Shown here: positions 2,581 through 63,743 of the stretch, piece after piece
Numbering within the stretch: position 1 is the stretch's first letter
Layout: every line of letters starts with the position of its first letter
Sequence record: MH051915
DNA length: 64,000 nucleotides
Source: Enterobacteria phage vB_EcoM_IME339
Reading direction: 5' to 3' (one strand)
The notes under the pieces: model-generated
What the model saw: only the letters and a program-made list of their open reading frames with translations
Told to the model about the DNA's origin: nothing
Databases searched by the model: none
Made by a program: the position numbers and the translations under genes

Positions 2581-3390
2581 TTAGAAACGAGATGCGACTT
2601 TCGCATATACACTTACAATATCTTCTGCACCAGGTGCAGTTTTATCTTCTACAGCTTCAGTGACGAAATTCAGTCCGGCTGCTTCAGTATCAGGAGTATT
2701 TATACCCTCAGTAATAGTGCTTTCATCTTTATTAGACTTCTTCACCATTTCTACGATGGCACTCAATTTACTTGAGAATTCATCTGAATAATCCATACCT
2801 TCGACCAGAGCAGAGACTTTTTCTTTTTGAGACTCAGTCAGATCTTTAGTACTTTCGCTCAATGCCACTTCACGCTGCACATAATTGATATATGCGTCAC
2901 GCTTATTGAGTTCTTCGAACAGACGAGCTGATTCTTCTTTATGTTCTTGCAGCTCTTCTTCCATTTCAGCTACAACATCAACTGATTCTTCTGGAACAAC
3001 AACGTTGTGTTCAACAAAGAGCTCTTTTAATCCACCAAGCATGGATTCAAACAGTTCGGCTTTGATGCCTTTATCAACTGCTAATTTATTTTCGGCGAGC
3101 CATTCTTTCGCAAGATGGTCGATGAATTTAGAAGCTTGCTCAGCGATTTTCTTCTCAGCTTTTTCTTCGGCTTCTTCTTTATTTTTTTCTACTTCTTCTT
3201 CTGCTTTTTCAGCAATTTTAGCGATATGAGATTCAGCTAATTTAACGGCGTGCTGCTTGACGGTAGCTTCGAATACAGTGCCGAAAGTTTCTTTTGCTTC
3301 CGGAGAAATATTAACTGATTCGAAAATACTATCAAGAGCAACGGAAGCATCAATTTTTTGCGCTTCAGCAATCAGTTGTTCTTTAAGCAT
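2581..3390 (-). CDS. 22: Prohead core scaffold protein gp22
   Basis: 269 aa, highly acidic coiled-coil, immediately upstream of gene 23 in T4 order. Confidence 0.9.
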   Translation of the reverse strand: MLKEQLIAEAQKIDASVALDSIFESVNISPEAKETFGTVFEATVKQHAVKLAESHIAKIAEKAEEEVEKNKEEAEEKAEKKIAEQASKFIDHLAKEWLAENKLAVDKGIKAELFESMLGGLKELFVEHNVVVPEESVDVVAEMEEELQEHKEESARLFEELNKRDAYINYVQREVALSESTKDLTESQKEKVSALVEGMDYSDEFSSKLSAIVEMVKKSNKDESTITEGINTPDTEAAGLNFVTEAVEDKTAPGAEDIVSVYAKVASRF

Positions 3391-4726: not shown

Positions 4727-6351
<1,625 letters not shown>

Positions 6352-6383
6352 TTAAGCAGGATGGGGATTTCTCCCCATTCATT

Positions 6384-6875
6384 TTATTCCCAATAATCGA
6401 GAGCGAGAGTTACTTCAAAGGTTTGGATTTCATTGTTTGAATCCCAATCTAATTGAAGTTCACCCACGTTAGTAGGCCACAGGCCTTTAATTTCGACTTC
6501 TTTTGTTACAGTTTTAGCGTCACGAGCATATTGGCGTACAATAGCGCTCTTTTTATACTCTGCTGGTTTTCCACCAGTAATTTCGTTTCCTTGCCCAGCA
6601 GCAATGCTTTGCCAGTCAACAAACTTCTGACGTGCATCATGAGCCTCATCATTCATTACTGTAATAGTCCAGTCATCGAATGTACGATCGCCTGCTACGT
6701 TAATTTTACGGTTCATAAACCCGACTGGAATTTTTTCTACAATACCAGCTGGTAAAGCAGTGGCTTTACATTGAAACGTAAAATTTTGTCCAAGATAAGA
6801 AATTTCTACTTGGAACAAGTTAGGTCGAGCAAAATCACCAGATTCAAACGCTCGTGTTACATCATCTACAAACAT
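6384..6875 (-). CDS. 19: Tail tube protein gp19
   Basis: 163 aa; position between 20 and 18; length matches T4 gp19. Confidence 0.9.
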   Translation of the reverse strand: MFVDDVTRAFESGDFARPNLFQVEISYLGQNFTFQCKATALPAGIVEKIPVGFMNRKINVAGDRTFDDWTITVMNDEAHDARQKFVDWQSIAAGQGNEITGGKPAEYKKSAIVRQYARDAKTVTKEVEIKGLWPTNVGELQLDWDSNNEIQTFEVTLALDYWE

Positions 6876-36911: not shown

Positions 36912-37310
36912 ATGAATATTGAAGATAAAGAAATGCGAGAGTTATATAATTCATTAACACCCGAACAACAAAAAGCTGCCAAAGAATTAGAGAAAGCTCT
37001 TAGTTTAAGCTTGACAAAAACTGATTGGGCCGCCGTGTATGAAGAAAAAATGAGGTCTGAAAATGAAGCTATCGAGAGAAATGAATGGATTGTAAACACC
37101 AAGATTAGTTCTGATGGCTGCTCTGTTGAGGTGTCAGCTGTAGTTAAAGGTACTCATGGCGAAGAATCATGGGGCTGGCATAATGAGGCAAACAAATATA
37201 TTGTTCTCTCAACGTCAAAAACTTATGGTCAAAAGGTTCCTGTATCCAAAGCTATTATTAAGCAAGCTCAATGGGAAGCCAATGAAATCTGTCTCGCAAA
37301 AATGAAATAA
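36912..37310 (+). CDS. Hypothetical protein
   Basis: 132 aa; GAGGAGAACATAATG RBS. Confidence 0.55.
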   Translation: MNIEDKEMRELYNSLTPEQQKAAKELEKALSLSLTKTDWAAVYEEKMRSENEAIERNEWIVNTKISSDGCSVEVSAVVKGTHGEESWGWHNEANKYIVLSTSKTYGQKVPVSKAIIKQAQWEANEICLAKMK

Positions 37311-37384
37311 CATGTTTACATTTCTCAAATAACAGGATATAATTCTACACGGATTTTAAATCTTAATCAACCTAAGGAAATATT

Positions 37385-37978
37385 ATGAACACACTGAAGA
37401 AAATTGTTGAGTTTATTCGCACTAAACTTGGTTCTGCTATGGCTAAAAATCTATCTGTCGAAGAACAGTATACTGCTGCAGCAGCAAAACTACTTGATAA
37501 AATTAAAGATCTAAAAACTGCTTCTGTTAAATCTATTAATGAAGAAAAACGTATTCGTGAACTTATTGTCGAAAAGAATCGACAGGCTGAATCAAAAGAG
37601 CGTGAAATTCGTAAACTTCTTTCCGAAGGTCAAGATGTAACAATGCACGCTAAACTCGGCTTGCTATATCGTCGAACGGCTGAGCAGTTGACTACTAAGG
37701 CTGACGGTTATGCTGAAATGCGAATTGAAATCGCTAAGAAAGTAGTTGAGTTAGATGATGCTCGTCAAGAACTTGCAGTTAAATTGGAATATATCCGTGA
37801 AACTCGTGCAGCAAATGCCCTTGGAATTAGTACTGCAGATGATGTAGTTGAAATCGCAGCGCTGACTAAGGTTGATATTGAAGATACCCTTGCTCGAGTT
37901 GAAACCTTTAACGGTAATATTTCCGGGGTTGAAACTACCTCTGCCGATGTCCAGGAATATATTAATTCTCTGAAATAA
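37385..37978 (+). CDS. Coiled-coil protein with weak PspA/IM30-like character (hypothetical)
   Basis: 197 aa, heptad-rich; segments such as DTLARVETF resemble PspA by eye only; early promoter at ~37310-37345. Confidence 0.5.
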
Positions 37979-38019
37979 TGATAAGGGGCTTCGGCCCCTA
38001 TTACTTGGAGTAAATAGGA

Positions 38020-38625
38020 ATGAAAATGCAAAGTGATTTCAATTCAATGTTTGAAGAGTTCCAAAGACAGGTTGATGTTCCAGACCAATTACTAAATGCT
38101 CTTAAACGTATGGCAGAAGGACGTAATTATTATTGGGGGTCTTCATATGAAACTGATGAAAGTCTTTCTGGATTTTATAAAGGTAAAAAGTCTTTAATAC
38201 GTCCTGGAATACTTATTAAAAGTATTGAATCAATTCATTCATTGACATGTGATTTTGATGTTGAATTTACTGATTTCATTTCTCCTGAATGGACAGTTTG
38301 TTATTTAAATGACGATTATGATTATCTTGGCGTTTATAGTTTAAGTGACGCATGGTTTAAACGTAATTTACAAAAGTCAAATTTGTTCTATATTGATACT
38401 ACGGTAAAATTTCAGGGAAAGAAATATTTCTTTACTCTTATAGTTGATTCTGAAACAAAGCATGAAAATAAACGTATTCTTAGCAAAAAGAATATCTTAA
38501 CTATTGTTGATGATCTTTTTGATAAATTCGTGGAAAATCCTAATTTTGAAAGCGATTTATTATTAGAAAAATTTGTTAAGGAATGTAGAGAATATGTCAA
38601 AGCCATCACTATACCTTCCAAGTAA
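38020..38625 (+). CDS. Hypothetical protein
   Basis: 201 aa; hairpin terminator-like element upstream; C-terminus shares the FVKECR junction motif with the next three ORFs. Confidence 0.55.
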   Translation: MKMQSDFNSMFEEFQRQVDVPDQLLNALKRMAEGRNYYWGSSYETDESLSGFYKGKKSLIRPGILIKSIESIHSLTCDFDVEFTDFISPEWTVCYLNDDYDYLGVYSLSDAWFKRNLQKSNLFYIDTTVKFQGKKYFFTLIVDSETKHENKRILSKKNILTIVDDLFDKFVENPNFESDLLLEKFVKECREYVKAITIPSK

Positions 38626-38986
38626 ACCTGTGAAGTATGAATTAAAGCGCCAGCTAATTTCTACTGATGTATTAATAGGTCCTGTTATACTCATATCATT
38701 TGTAATTCTATTGATTATTGGAGGTGTTTTAGATGTTATGACTGATATTGATTCTGGCGAAATACTTGTGTTAATGCTAATTCTTCCATTAATAGTTCCA
38801 CTTTTATTAGTACCTGTAAATTGGATAGGATATTGGTATCAAGGAAGACATTATCGTAAACGTGTACGTGATTGGAAAGCACAGTGTAAAAAGATTAAAA
38901 AGGAACACCAGCTTAAACTTGTTGAGTATGAATTTAATGAAATTATGAAATTTGTTAAGGAATCACGATGCAAAAGCCAAAACTAA
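38594..38986 (+). CDS. Small membrane protein (hypothetical), paralogue family member
   Basis: Track start 38573 is TTG; moved to ATG 38594; two transmembrane helices then a basic tail; C-terminal FVKESR motif. Confidence 0.5.
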   Translation: MSKPSLYLPSKPVKYELKRQLISTDVLIGPVILISFVILLIIGGVLDVMTDIDSGEILVLMLILPLIVPLLLVPVNWIGYWYQGRHYRKRVRDWKAQCKKIKKEHQLKLVEYEFNEIMKFVKESRCKSQN

Positions 38987-39330
38987 ATAAAGTCAAATAT
39001 TCGTTCCCCGAGGCACTATTAATTCTTGCCGTGTCAGTATTTGCAGCTCTTGCTGGTAGTCTTATTGGATTGTTAATTGACTGTATTATTTTAAACATCG
39101 ATGGTTCAGCAATTATAACAGAGGTTTGGAGTGAACTTCGTTTTACTATAGCGATTACATTATTTTCATTCTTTGGTACCATGCTATATTTTCATTATGA
39201 TAATTTTAAAATAAATTGGCAAAGAAAAAAGGATTACAAAATACAATTAAAAGAATATAATAGCTACATGTCTTATATTGAAAATGAATCAATGAAAGAG
39301 TTTGTGAGTGATTGCAGGAAAATCAAATGA
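38968..39330 (+). CDS. Small membrane protein (hypothetical), paralogue family member
   Basis: 120 aa; transmembrane helices; C-terminal EFVSDCRKIK. Confidence 0.5.
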   Translation: MQKPKLNKVKYSFPEALLILAVSVFAALAGSLIGLLIDCIILNIDGSAIITEVWSELRFTIAITLFSFFGTMLYFHYDNFKINWQRKKDYKIQLKEYNSYMSYIENESMKEFVSDCRKIK

Positions 39331-39815
39331 TTTTAAAAACTCGCTGGTATGATTTAGATGACGGGGATGATGGCATTTCAGTTGATAGAGTTGACTGGAA
39401 TGGCTGTTCCGAAGATATGAAAAATTTGCTGATTAGGGAGTTTAGAATGGGATATCAACCAGTTAAGCCATCTACTGCAACAGATGATAAATTCGTGTGT
39501 ATTCATAATGGTCGCGCTAAATTAACGAACGCTGATTGGTTCACAGATAAGATTATGATTCTGTGGTATATTATTAGTTTTCCTGTGACATCATTTGTAT
39601 TTTGCTTCTTTGGAGAAAGTCCAGTAGGCAGAACGGAAGATTGGATTCTTTTAATTATACTTGTTAATATTTTTACAGCAGCAGTACTATCAGGAATATG
39701 GTGCGTGTTCATTGAAATGCCATGGCGGTTACGTAGGCAGCAAAAGATTTTTGATGAAAAGAAATATACTCAAAATTTAAATAATTTTATCACTGAATGC
39801 AGGAAATTAAAATGA
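39327..39815 (+). CDS. Small membrane protein (hypothetical), paralogue family member
   Basis: Track start 39312 is TTG; moved to ATG 39327 (ATGA overlap with upstream stop); transmembrane helices; C-terminal NFITECRKLK. Confidence 0.5.
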   Translation: MILKTRWYDLDDGDDGISVDRVDWNGCSEDMKNLLIREFRMGYQPVKPSTATDDKFVCIHNGRAKLTNADWFTDKIMILWYIISFPVTSFVFCFFGESPVGRTEDWILLIILVNIFTAAVLSGIWCVFIEMPWRLRRQQKIFDEKKYTQNLNNFITECRKLK

Positions 39816-40252
39816 AAACATTATCAGCTGGTATTATCTTTATGACAGAAGATAAAGATTTATTTATGGGACGAGTTACTGGTTCTCGTAAGCCTGGAAT
39901 GATGGCACATCGTTGGGATATTCCAAAGGGGCGTGTAGAAAGTTCTGATTTGAATGCACTGGAAGCTGCAAAAAGAGAATGTTTAGAAGAGACTGGCTTT
40001 AGTAATTATAATCCAGACCTTCTAGAAGACCTAGGTGTATTTAAATATTCTAGTAATAAAGACTTACAGTTGTTTTATTATACGATTCCAGTAGAGCATG
40101 AGATGTTTAGAAATTGCCATTGTGAGTCTTATTTTGAAAATAAAGATGGCGTTATGATTCCAGAGATGGATGCTTTTGCTCTTATTCCTCGTACTCAGTG
40201 GCAATATGTGATGGCTCCTTCACTTTACCGAATAATGAACAGCCTCTTTTAA
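39797..40252 (+). CDS. nudE: Nudix hydrolase NudE (e.1)
   Basis: 151 aa; Nudix box region GRVESSDLNALEAAKRECLEETGF; immediately upstream of e; alternative start ATG 39812. Confidence 0.85.
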   Translation: MQEIKMKTLSAGIIFMTEDKDLFMGRVTGSRKPGMMAHRWDIPKGRVESSDLNALEAAKRECLEETGFSNYNPDLLEDLGVFKYSSNKDLQLFYYTIPVEHEMFRNCHCESYFENKDGVMIPEMDAFALIPRTQWQYVMAPSLYRIMNSLF

Positions 40253-40818
<566 letters not shown>

Positions 40819-40842
40819 TTCACAGTTACTTGGAGGGATAAA

Positions 40843-41259
40843 ATGACTCGTATTAATTTGACTTTAGTATCTGAACTTGCTGATCAACATTTAATCGCAG
40901 AATACCGTGAACTGCCGCGTGTTTTTGGTATAGTTCGTAAACATGTTGCAAATGGTAAACGGGTTAAAGATTTTAAAATATCTTCCGAGTTTATTTTAGG
41001 TTCTGGTCATGTTACGTTCTTTTATGATAAGTTAGAATTTTTGCGAAAGCGTCAATCAGACATTATAACGGAATGCTTAAAACGTGGGTTTAGTATAAAA
41101 GATACTGAAGTTCCTGACATCAGCGATATTCCAGCAGAATGGAAAAATGATTATAATCCATGCAAATCAGCTATTAAGTTGAGTCAACAACGACTCGATG
41201 AAAAAATTTTAATGAAGCCACACTGGTATAAATACTACGGTAAAAATATTTACATTTAA
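40843..41259 (+). CDS. denV: Endonuclease V (pyrimidine dimer DNA glycosylase/AP lyase)
   Basis: 138 aa; [17 protein letters not shown]...YKYYGK matches T4 DenV. Confidence 0.93.
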
Positions 41260-41268
41260 AGGAAACAC

Positions 41269-41742
41269 ATGAAAACATATCAAGAATTTATCACTGAAGC
41301 AGCTATTAATTCTCAAATTATTGCTGAATCTTTTACTGATCTTTTGAAATTTAAAAAAGGTCAAAAAATCACTGCTGTATTGGATGATGGTACAGAAGTT
41401 GAGATGGATGTACAGGGATATAATTATGCAGTAGATGGAAAACTGTATAATAAATCTCACGCTAAATTTGATTCATTTGACGACTTTGTTAATACAGTTG
41501 AAGATGAAAAAACTCGTAGATCAATTTCAACTGGCGATGCTAAGGTTCTTATGGCGCACGGCCATGAACGTATCCGCGCCAAACAGAATAAAATGGGTGA
41601 AGATAATTTTGCATTAGTTGGTTATCAATCTGGTAAGCAAACTTATGGCTATCAGCGTACTGCTACCATGTATAACAAAAATGGTAAAATCGCTTTCGTG
41701 AATAGCAAAGGCTCTATTCAGTACGTCAAATCATTCAAATAA
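41269..41742 (+). CDS. Internal-protein-like capsid-targeted protein, function unknown
   Basis: 157 aa; N-terminus MKTYQEFITE|A is a near-consensus T4 capsid targeting sequence; sits after denV rather than between e and denV as T4 ipII/ipIII do. Confidence 0.75.
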   Translation: MKTYQEFITEAAINSQIIAESFTDLLKFKKGQKITAVLDDGTEVEMDVQGYNYAVDGKLYNKSHAKFDSFDDFVNTVEDEKTRRSISTGDAKVLMAHGHERIRAKQNKMGEDNFALVGYQSGKQTYGYQRTATMYNKNGKIAFVNSKGSIQYVKSFK

Positions 41743-63434: not shown

Positions 63435-63743
63435 GTGAAACAAAACAAGATTGAAGTCTATGGAATTCCAGATGAAGTAGGTCGTTGTCCTGGATGTCAA
63501 TCAGTTACAAAACTTCTAAAGGAGCTCAATGCTCCTTTTACTTTCTATAAAGTTCTTACAAATAATGGTAAGATCGAGTATGATCGTCCACTGATTGTAT
63601 CTCTTGCTAAACGCGCTGGATTCACATCTCTTAACATTCGTTATCCAGTCATTTTCATCAATGATTCTAGACAAAAGAACATTAAACACTTCAAAGAAAC
63701 TCTCATTTCACTTGGATATGATAGAGATATCATAGAAGACTAA
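63435..63743 (+). CDS. nrdH: Glutaredoxin-like protein NrdH
   Basis: 102 aa from GTG 63435 with AAGGA RBS; CPGC redox motif. Confidence 0.8.
   Translation: MKQNKIEVYGIPDEVGRCPGCQSVTKLLKELNAPFTFYKVLTNNGKIEYDRPLIVSLAKRAGFTSLNIRYPVIFINDSRQKNIKHFKETLISLGYDRDIIED

Follow-up and report, generated by a model that had tools for sequence, protein, structure and literature searches.

In a 64,000-nucleotide stretch of the genome of Enterobacteria phage vB_EcoM_IME339 (MH051915; hereafter the window), four consecutive genes corresponding to T4 e.5, e.4, e.3 and e.2 encode proteins with a common C-terminal tail, F-[V/I]-x-[E/D]-[C/S]-R, that is retained in three phage genera and whose codons run into the signals that start the next gene. 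We favour, with a probability of roughly 0.6, a reading in which this tail is a selected docking motif shared by the cluster proteins and overlaid on the initiation region of the following gene, the resulting DNA repeats providing a deletion joint as a by-product.

The window belongs to the genus Tequatrovirus (positions 37300-40900 match hundreds of T4-like phages at 90-96% DNA identity), and T4 (AF158101) shows 93.5% DNA identity to it and an identical gene order between e.6 and nudE/e. Identity and synteny with the T4 annotation placed the four open reading frames (ORFs) upstream of nudE and lysozyme e as e.5, e.4, e.3 and e.2, each with its own PHROG match (E values from 1e-57 to 1e-108; Table 1). 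The last three are annotated in T4 as predicted membrane proteins of unknown function, and the series was named msp1-8 in an old T4 record.

Six-frame translation of the 64 kb yielded five matches to F[VI]x[ED][CS]R, against 0.35 expected in total from the window's own amino-acid frequencies. Four of the five are the C-termini of e.5, e.4, e.3 and e.2; the fifth, at 63654, is unrelated to the cluster. The chance of the motif falling within the last 20 amino acids of four given ORFs is ~3e-18, and residue shuffles produced a mean of 0.0035 motif-bearing ORFs per trial. The original prediction, made from the letters alone, that four consecutive genes share a C-terminal motif was therefore real, with one correction to its wording: the motif lies near all four C-termini (5 residues short of the stop in e.4 and 3 in both e.3 and e.2), but e.5 runs 11 residues past it. 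Because no other ORF among the 564 of at least 40 amino acids that were scanned (T4 1-50 kb, T4 119-169 kb and the window) ends in even a relaxed form, the motif is specific to the e.5-e.2 locus. In its extended form it spans roughly nine residues (hydrophobic-[E/N]-x-F-[V/I]-x-[E/D]-C-R), with hydrophobic residues at i, i+3, i+4 and i+7 that would form one face of an amphipathic helix.

Conservation of the tail peptide across genera

Comparison with Mosigvirus (AlbertHofmann, AV111, pEB20, WFbE185 and a record named Av-05) and Dhakavirus (CLBP2) revealed that the tail is kept on bodies that differ widely. Protein identity between Tequatrovirus and Mosigvirus is 46% for e.5, 52% for e.4, 37% for e.3 and 25% for e.2, and the Mosigvirus tails read FIMECREY, FVKEIRCK, FIKECRK and FITECR, respectively; an extra Mosigvirus protein of 101 amino acids with two transmembrane segments (m101) ends in NLENFIKECRGK. 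Dhakavirus CLBP2 has one e.3-like gene (tail LETFIKECKS), an e.2 (tail NSFIEECRK) and, at the e.5 position, a protein of 180 amino acids (L028, minus strand, 2683-3225) with the tail FIAECREY, for which similarity to e.5 is detectable solely over the 17-residue tail RKLNRFIAECREYAKEV. The motif is kept too in an intermediate lineage from a metagenome (L025).

At the nucleotide level, codon differences at fixed positions were almost all synonymous (F TTT/TTC, V GTG/GTA, I ATC/ATT and C TGT/TGC), with the motif Arg codon varying among AGA, AGG, CGA and CGT. The F codon lies 17, 20, 22, 26, 28 or 40 nt from the next ATG, so that the motif has no fixed place in the initiation region. Since codon changes are synonymous and the motif is kept at a variable distance from the next start, selection appears to act mainly on the peptide and not on one DNA block. 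The Mosigvirus e.5 and e.4 ends are dissimilar in DNA, with the peptide still kept, and a 26-nt stretch across the e.5/e.4 overlap is the same in Tequatrovirus and Mosigvirus. Between genera, no high DNA identity confined to the tails, which would be a sign of recent tail exchange, was seen.

Paralogy, topology and family searches

Profile-profile comparison (hhalign) aligned e.4 with e.3 over their full length (117 columns; probability 88%, E = 3e-6) at about 22% identity between the bodies, and on this basis the two are tandem paralogues within a hairpin family with two transmembrane segments. The e.2 and m101 proteins are probably further members: m101 matched e.2 (76%) and e.3 (64%) over the second transmembrane segment and the tail. 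Elsewhere e.3 and e.2 aligned over 15 tail columns only (59.5%), e.4 and e.2 had no similarity by the same method, and the Dhakavirus e.3-like gene aligned with e.3 over its full length (97%). Matches of e.5 to the others were weak (0.6-40%) and covered only 7-13 motif columns; control proteins (Imm, Imm.1, Sp, 55.8, 47.1, PseT.3, Ac and RIII) scored at most 16% against these profiles. The same tail thus occurs on non-homologous proteins, in that e.5, the Dhakavirus 180-amino-acid protein and the membrane proteins share the tail only.

Hydropathy plots and the positive-inside rule, used instead of a dedicated predictor, gave one topology for e.4, e.3, e.2 and m101. Each has two hydrophobic segments, an acidic loop free of K/R and K/R-rich ends, and both ends are for that reason predicted to lie inside, with the tails cytoplasmic. 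In e.2 a 75-amino-acid soluble N-terminal part precedes the two transmembrane segments and the tail, and e.5 has no hydrophobic segment, in agreement with the earlier view that three of the four are small membrane proteins.

The family to which e.4 and e.3 belong is very narrow in the collections searched. A combined e.4 and e.3 profile, run against 1.84 billion representative proteins, returned six clusters, all T-even-type; word-seeded searches with e.3, e.5 and e.2 returned Tequatrovirus proteins, e.5 alone adding one more distant protein (47% identity); in tblastn, e.4 and e.3 gave Tequatrovirus-level matches plus a group below 60% identity that was Mosigvirus in every record inspected; and a nudE-anchored search of IMG/VR found four T4-like loci. 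Searches for function by homology in Pfam, PHROGs, NCBIfam, PADLOC and PDB sequences led to unknown-function families or sub-threshold noise, and the name of PF26873 (Phage_T4_Y06O) merely repeats the T4 uncharacterised-protein label.

The suggestion that the membrane proteins could be superinfection-exclusion-type factors found no support here. Like Imm and Sp, these are small early proteins directed to the cell envelope; unlike them, they have no detectable sequence relationship or common motif with that pair, of which Sp is periplasmic. Imm, Imm.1 and Sp reached a probability of at most 1.2% against all five profiles (hhalign), and no functional match emerged from Pfam, PHROGs, NCBIfam or PADLOC.

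A proposed docking tail and the points that weigh against it

Taken as a protein element, the tail would be a cytoplasmic C-terminal helix motif, kept by protein-level selection and common to a small paralogue family, to e.5 and to the Dhakavirus 180-amino-acid protein. It may act as a portable docking helix that recruits both soluble and membrane proteins to a single partner or a single fate, a function that we infer and favour by analogy with the capsid-targeting leader of the internal proteins (IPs) encoded nearby. The purine-rich tail codons (AAG GAA for K-E and AGG AAA for R-K) would double as the Shine-Dalgarno sequence of the next gene, because stops and starts overlap in this tightly packed block, and this would impose a second, nucleotide-level constraint. 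As a by-product, the repeated tails put short direct DNA repeats exactly at gene boundaries, and recombination between the e.3 and e.2 repeats may have excised e.2 in a T2-type lineage, leaving the e.3 tail and the nudE initiation region intact.

Several observations weigh against this reading. The e.5 tail likeness could stem from an old fusion or offset duplication instead of shared function; the e.2 paralogy with e.3/e.4 rests on the second transmembrane segment and tail only; the Cys position is occupied by S or I in e.4; and no family library gives a function for e.2-e.5. AlphaFold2 models place a helix at the tail with low confidence in both proteins modelled (mean predicted local distance difference test (pLDDT) scores of 57 for e.5 and 50 for e.2), and the tail is thus helical by prediction only. 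Finally, the GAA, AGG and AAA motif codons are invariant within Tequatrovirus, and because several motif codons never vary there, a nucleotide-level contribution is inseparable from the peptide-level one within that genus.

A bolder version, which we regard as doubtful, is that the F-[V/I]-x-E-C-R tail may be a portable C-terminal address tag, an early-gene counterpart of the IP leader, with the same 20-30 nt serving as tag, as ribosome-binding site (RBS) of the next gene and as joint for the gain, loss or replacement of protein bodies. The invariant Cys-Arg beside a Nudix/NAD-linked gene is suggestive of a modification. Were such a tag real, every rearrangement would yield a tagged, expressed protein, and any body carrying the tail would be recruited to one partner or modification.

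Junction repeats and the loss of e.2

The cluster had also been proposed to carry one conserved DNA block, repeated at all four gene junctions, that could serve as a recombination site for cassette exchange. A single common block is ruled out, as nucleotide alignment of the four junctions gave only two separate pairs. The e.5 and e.4 ends share a 16-nt perfect direct repeat, AAATTTGTTAAGGAAT (observed score matched by 0 of 500 shuffles), and the e.3 and e.2 ends share a 30-nt repeat (TTTGTGAGTGATTGCAGGAAAATCAAATGA and TTTATCACTGAATGCAGGAAATTAAAATGA; 24 of 30 positions, or 80%, identical) whose copies are spaced by 485 nt, the length of the e.2 cassette. Both pairs beat shuffled controls; no significant DNA similarity links one pair to the other at the junction, and the sole borderline cross-pair match (e.4/e.3 versus e.3/e.2 windows, p = 0.026) sits away from it. 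Only e.3/e.2 and e.2/nudE have the block GAATGCAGGAAA...ATGA at their junctions, e.5/e.4 and e.4/e.3 having the 16-nt repeat in its place, and GAATGCAGGAAA with up to two mismatches is not enriched in the window. Within e.4 there is a further in-frame direct repeat of 24 nt (38623-38646 versus 38914-38937, 83% identity), whose copies are translated as KPVKYELK, close to the N-terminus, and KLVEYEFN, immediately ahead of the tail (the e.3 start, NKVKYSF, is similar); it may be a leftover of duplication-unit boundaries.

Cassette variation at the junctions among related phages was found for e.2, which is absent from T2, PST, PP01, ZN18, VEc74, 236Ecol005PP and others, in which e.3 adjoins nudE with an ATGA overlap. 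The joint in these phages reads GAT-TGCAGGAAA-TTAAAATG, with its left flank from the e.3 copy and its right flank from the e.2 copy, which places the crossover within the shared 9-mer TGCAGGAAA inside the 30-nt repeat and changes the e.3 tail from CRKIK to CRKLK. By tblastn, Tequatrovirus-type e.3 is present in ~497 records and e.2 in ~446, leaving about one-tenth without e.2. Judged from gene order, the e.2-less state is a deletion, because Mosigvirus and Dhakavirus carry e.2 next to nudE, with or without an ORF of 78 amino acids between them. The e.2-less loci examined, three in number, group closely, at 97-100% identity in e.3 and 98% in nudE, and the loss was therefore probably a single event; independent recurrence was considered and is unsupported. 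The nearest e.2-bearing relative of these loci is T4, whose e.2 is already broken (AF158101, L001 3463-3960): it is cut to 102 amino acids by a divergent patch with a stop and a later frameshift, but its 3' end survives as a remnant that still has NFITECRKLK and the nudE junction. The loss thus possibly followed pseudogenisation; other phages have e.2 forms of 122 and 102 amino acids. Pseudogenes of e.2 (T4), e.3 (WFbE185) and e.5 (ZN18) indicate that the cluster genes are dispensable.

Other rearrangements of the cluster use unrelated microhomologies (TCCTGT, GAGATGA and a mid-e.5 site). Shigella phage A2 carries an in-frame e.5::e.4 fusion (L004 1159-1896; 245 amino acids as annotated), and UFV11/UFV05 carry an in-frame e.4::e.2 chimera of 106 amino acids with e.3 removed (L031 1501-1821, UFV11), whose TCCTGT joint falls in the first transmembrane segment of both parents, so that a two-transmembrane protein with the tail is preserved; one e.4 variant lacks both transmembrane segments. 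The 78-amino-acid ORF between e.2 and nudE occurs in several Mosigvirus phages and in Dhakavirus (L022 9864-10100, L024 9489-9725 and L027 5492-5728), is absent in AlbertHofmann (L021) and has GAGATGA at both ends; on its sequence, the difference is an exact-cassette deletion at the start/stop overlap.

These events bear on whether the junction is primarily a DNA-level recombination module for swapping, inserting or excising cassettes, with the peptide incidental. Consistent with such a module are the precise excision of e.2 between the 30-nt repeats, the 16-nt perfect repeat on either side of e.4, the Mosigvirus and Dhakavirus insertions that start directly after the e.3 tail, the Dhakavirus 180-amino-acid protein with a different body and the same tail, and the 78-amino-acid ORF joint at a start/stop overlap. 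However, the four junctions form two DNA pairs and not one, the Mosigvirus e.5 and e.4 ends keep the peptide without resembling each other in DNA, codon changes are synonymous, the e.2-less phages form one cluster, and the remaining deletions fall at 6-7-nt microhomologies inside genes. The e.4-less phage predicted from the 16-nt repeat was not found (the 25 best matches to the hypothetical joint were all two-piece, that is, with e.4 present), and no swap of one cassette for another between identical junctions was seen among ~500 Tequatrovirus records. We therefore consider a primary recombination module improbable: of the proposed role in cassette exchange, a clean deletion of e.2 between repeats stands, probably as a single event, and of the proposed cassette variation, the presence or absence of e.2 stands, but not e.4 loss, swaps or a common use of the junctions.

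Overlapping initiation signals

The cluster is gap-free, with zero intergenic bases from e.5 to nudE. As originally noted, each coding end overlaps the RBS and start of the next gene: the overlaps are 32 nt (e.5/e.4), 19 nt (e.4/e.3) and 4 nt, as ATGA, at both e.3/e.2 and e.2/nudE, and Shine-Dalgarno-like AAGGAA or AGGAAA sits inside the upstream tail codons at every junction, with AAGGAA or AGGA 5-10 nt before each ATG. Specifically, the e.3 ATG is preceded at 5 nt by AAGGAA (K-E), the e.2 and nudE ATGs at 7 nt by AGGA (R-K), and the gene that follows m101 by GAGGA (R-G). Among the motif Arg codons, the rare AGG is restricted to sites where an AGGA located 7 nt ahead of the following ATG supplies the Shine-Dalgarno sequence. 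Translational coupling of the cluster genes is plausible, because stops and starts overlap and the Shine-Dalgarno sequences fall inside the upstream tails. Stable RNA structure masking the starts was not found in 90-nt windows at the four junctions (z of -0.53 to +0.94 versus shuffles), nor were promoter-like sites at the junctions (regional count 18 versus 16.0 ± 3.7 in shuffles); one promoter-like match lies within e.3 (39233-39261), about 65 nt upstream of the e.2 start.

T4 NudE is annotated from an ATG inside the motif (GA-ATG-CAG, MQEIKMKTLS...; window 39797-39815, L001 3933-3950). No Shine-Dalgarno sequence accompanies this internal ATG, whereas AGGA stands 7 nt ahead of the ATG at 39812, from which most other records start the gene; a Glu(GAA)-Cys pair always creates such an internal ATG.

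Could the motif be no more than a by-product of the overlapping initiation region, a Shine-Dalgarno sequence and spacer that happen to encode K-E-C-R-K? AAGGAA/AGGAAA inside the motif, AGG fixed where it is the Shine-Dalgarno sequence, and overlap DNA that is alike in two genera at e.5/e.4 all fit this explanation, but the F-[V/I] codons stand at anything from 17 to 40 nt before the following ATG and the Shine-Dalgarno sequences come from different codons (K-E, R-K and R-G). Moreover, the motif of the Dhakavirus 180-amino-acid protein, with Arg as CGT, precedes a separate GAGG Shine-Dalgarno sequence by 22 nt and still reads FIAECREY, and no other overlapping gene pair in the ~164 kb of T4-type sequence scanned makes such a tail. 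An origin in initiation signals alone is accordingly quite unlikely.

Comparison with known systems

A close parallel to the proposed docking tail is in the neighbouring IP genes. The T-even IP loci, as Repoila and colleagues are said to have described in 1994, combine unrelated bodies with one conserved terminal peptide and with flanking conserved blocks that hold translation signals. Otherwise unrelated IP proteins are united by an N-terminal capsid-targeting leader (Arbiol et al. 2010, PMC2839356). The e.5-e.2 cluster resembles these loci in its adjacent position (T4 ipII and ipIII lie beside gene e), in a short conserved terminal peptide on dissimilar proteins, in a conserved coding end that coincides with translation signals, and in a gene number that varies among relatives. 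It differs in having the peptide at the C-terminus with no N-terminal leader, on early proteins of the cytoplasm or inner membrane instead of head proteins that are packaged, in its lack of intergenic blocks, and in a polymorphism within Tequatrovirus that is limited to e.2 presence or absence and sporadic fusions, with large differences between genera.

A direct relationship, in which the tail would be a processing or targeting signal related to the IP leader and cleaved by the prohead protease, is highly improbable. The T4 capsid-targeting sequence is MKTYQEFI(A/T)E, and the T4 prohead protease cleaves by the rule [L/I]-x-E, to which F-I-x-E with a C after it would conform; MKTYQEFITEA opens the product of the IP gene at 41269, whose FITE codons (TTTATCACTGAA) are the same as those of the e.2 tail, and the Dhakavirus tail has FIAE, as in the targeting sequence. 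Yet this four-residue likeness was spotted post hoc, a 12-mer with one mismatch is not above chance, and the motif is C-terminal on early, mostly inner-membrane proteins, whereas the protease works inside proheads late in infection; in addition, V-x-D of e.3 fits the cleavage rule poorly, and cleavage would take off only 3-12 residues. Just as remote is the idea that the motif is a neutral, unselected relic of recent tandem duplication or gene conversion, which the e.4/e.3 paralogy and the 16-nt perfect identity in Tequatrovirus would suit (the latter looks like conversion or recent duplication) but which is largely refuted by cross-genus conservation, the tail being kept in three genera, on non-homologous bodies too, despite ~22% identity between paralogue bodies and 25-52% between orthologues.

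Promoter early stem-loop (PeSL) elements offer another comparison, in that the junctions are short repeats at gene boundaries in a plastic region, include the Shine-Dalgarno sequence and start of the next gene, and leave a functional joint on excision between two copies, with indels ending at the junction for e.2 only and not for e.4. PeSLs, however, are intergenic and carry a sigma-70 promoter and a stem-loop (PMC2839356, PMC4122927), whereas the junctions here lie within coding sequence and neither feature was found in them; they are thus ruled out as PeSL elements.

Deletions between short direct repeats are also known for T4 rII. Spontaneous deletions of this kind were reported by Albertini et al. 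(1982, as cited in PMC4122927), and the e.2 loss (a 9-nt perfect core in a 30-nt repeat of 80% identity), the e.4::e.2 chimera (TCCTGT) and the 78-amino-acid ORF loss (GAGATGA) are alike in this respect. The e.2 repeat differs in being a selected coding motif plus initiation region and not chance microhomology, and the deletion product would therefore be automatically in frame and expressed. Phage tandem paralogue families with coupled ATGA overlaps are similar to e.4/e.3 (and probably e.2 and m101) in adjacency, in two transmembrane segments and in overlapping stops and starts; the conserved element here differs from theirs in comprising ~9 C-terminal residues and in being found also on the non-paralogous e.5 and Dhakavirus 180-amino-acid protein.

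The locus is thus a variation on known themes, namely terminal peptides that behave as modules, coupled genes that overlap, and the loss of cassettes through repeats in hyperplastic regions of T-even phages, and the general view of T4 genome plasticity is unchanged by it. The shared tail is unmentioned in the literature on PeSLs, NudE and T4-like diversity that we consulted, which does not cover Miller 2003 or Repoila 1994, and an earlier description is possible. Nevertheless, e.2-e.5 are among many T4 early genes without a known role, and a selected tail on five or six bodies in three genera offers a concrete handle on them, such that a single tail peptide could be used to find what the whole cluster does. 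The tight packing, in which one short sequence would be protein motif, ribosome-binding site and accidental deletion joint, helps to explain how T-even accessory genes can be lost as exact cassettes even without a PeSL.

Genomic context

Upstream of the cluster (Table 1), the promoter-like site ahead of e.6 is the probable source of transcripts reading into the e.5-nudE block, as judged from its match to consensus. The stem-loop that follows e.6 is the sole intergenic element ahead of this block, and is annotated as a stem_loop or terminator in the T4 and Lutter records.

Table 1 Features of the e.5-e.2 cluster and its surroundings, with positions in the window
Feature	Position	Strand	Description
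Early-promoter-like site	37315..37343	+	Sigma-70-type, TTTACA-17-TATAAT, 11/12; consensus scan; upstream of e.6
e.6	37385..37978	+	197 aa; helical/coiled-coil-like; motif absent; directly upstream of cluster
Stem-loop	37984..37999	+	GC-rich, GGGGCTTCGGCCCC; between e.6 and e.5
e.5	38020..38625	+	201 aa; soluble; tail ...LLLEKFVKECREYVKAITIPSK; PHROG 2607; PF26876
16-nt repeat, copy 1	38569..38584	+	AAATTTGTTAAGGAAT; perfect direct repeat; end of e.5
e.5 motif codons	38572..38589	+	TTT GTT AAG GAA TGT AGA (FVKECR)
e.4	38594..38986 (from ATG)	+	130 aa; two transmembrane segments; tail ...EIMKFVKESRCKSQN; PHROG 2604; PF26873 Phage_T4_Y06O
16-nt repeat, copy 2	38948..38963	+	AAATTTGTTAAGGAAT; perfect direct repeat; end of e.4; its AAGGAA 5 nt before e.3 ATG
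e.4 motif codons	38951..38968	+	TTT GTT AAG GAA TCA CGA (FVKESR); final base doubles as the A of the e.3 ATG
e.3	38968..39330	+	120 aa; two transmembrane segments; e.4 paralogue (profile comparison); tail ...ESMKEFVSDCRKIK; PHROG 2330
e.3 motif codons	39301-39318	+	FVSDCR
30-nt junction repeat, copy 1	39301..39330	+	TTTGTGAGTGATTGCAGGAAAATCAAATGA; AGGA Shine-Dalgarno 39316-39319; e.2 ATG overlaps e.3 TGA
e.2	39327..39815 (from ATG)	+	162 aa; tail ...NLNNFITECRKLK; PHROG 2203; PF26896
e.2 motif codons	39786-39803	+	FITECR
30-nt junction repeat, copy 2	39786..39815	+	TTTATCACTGAATGCAGGAAATTAAAATGA; AGGA Shine-Dalgarno 39801-39804; nudE ATG overlaps e.2 TGA
nudE (e.1)	39812..40252	+	Nudix hydrolase, 146 aa; first gene 3' of motif series
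Lysozyme e	40289-40783		164 aa
denV	40843-41259		138 aa

Downstream, denV directly follows lysozyme e and an IP gene follows denV (window 40783-41269), and T4 has ipIII and ipII between e and denV, a known polymorphism of the IP locus. The FITE codons TTTATCACTGAA of this IP gene (41269-41742) lie at 41287-41298 and those of the e.2 tail at 39786-39797, the only two exact copies in the window, and the nudE start ATGAAAACATTATCA resembles the IP leader start ATGAAAACATATCAA. This likeness between the IP leader and e.2-nudE is not statistically compelling and may have come about by chance or through an ancient recombination event involving both loci.

The same hyperplastic stretch holds a second tandem family, comprising small genes of 65-101 amino acids between e.3 and e.2 (three in Mosigvirus and five in Dhakavirus; L021, minus strand, 5784-6578; L022 6231-7025; L027 354-1598), all of which end in G-W-[V/I]-[S/A]-S-S-x-x-C plus stop. 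Finally, KM190144 (L020, Escherichia phage Av-05) is classed as Vequintavirinae/Avunavirus with a 121 kb circular genome, yet has a segment of Mosigvirus type (m101-e.2-nudE-e-denV), pointing to either a mixed assembly or an erroneous taxonomic label.

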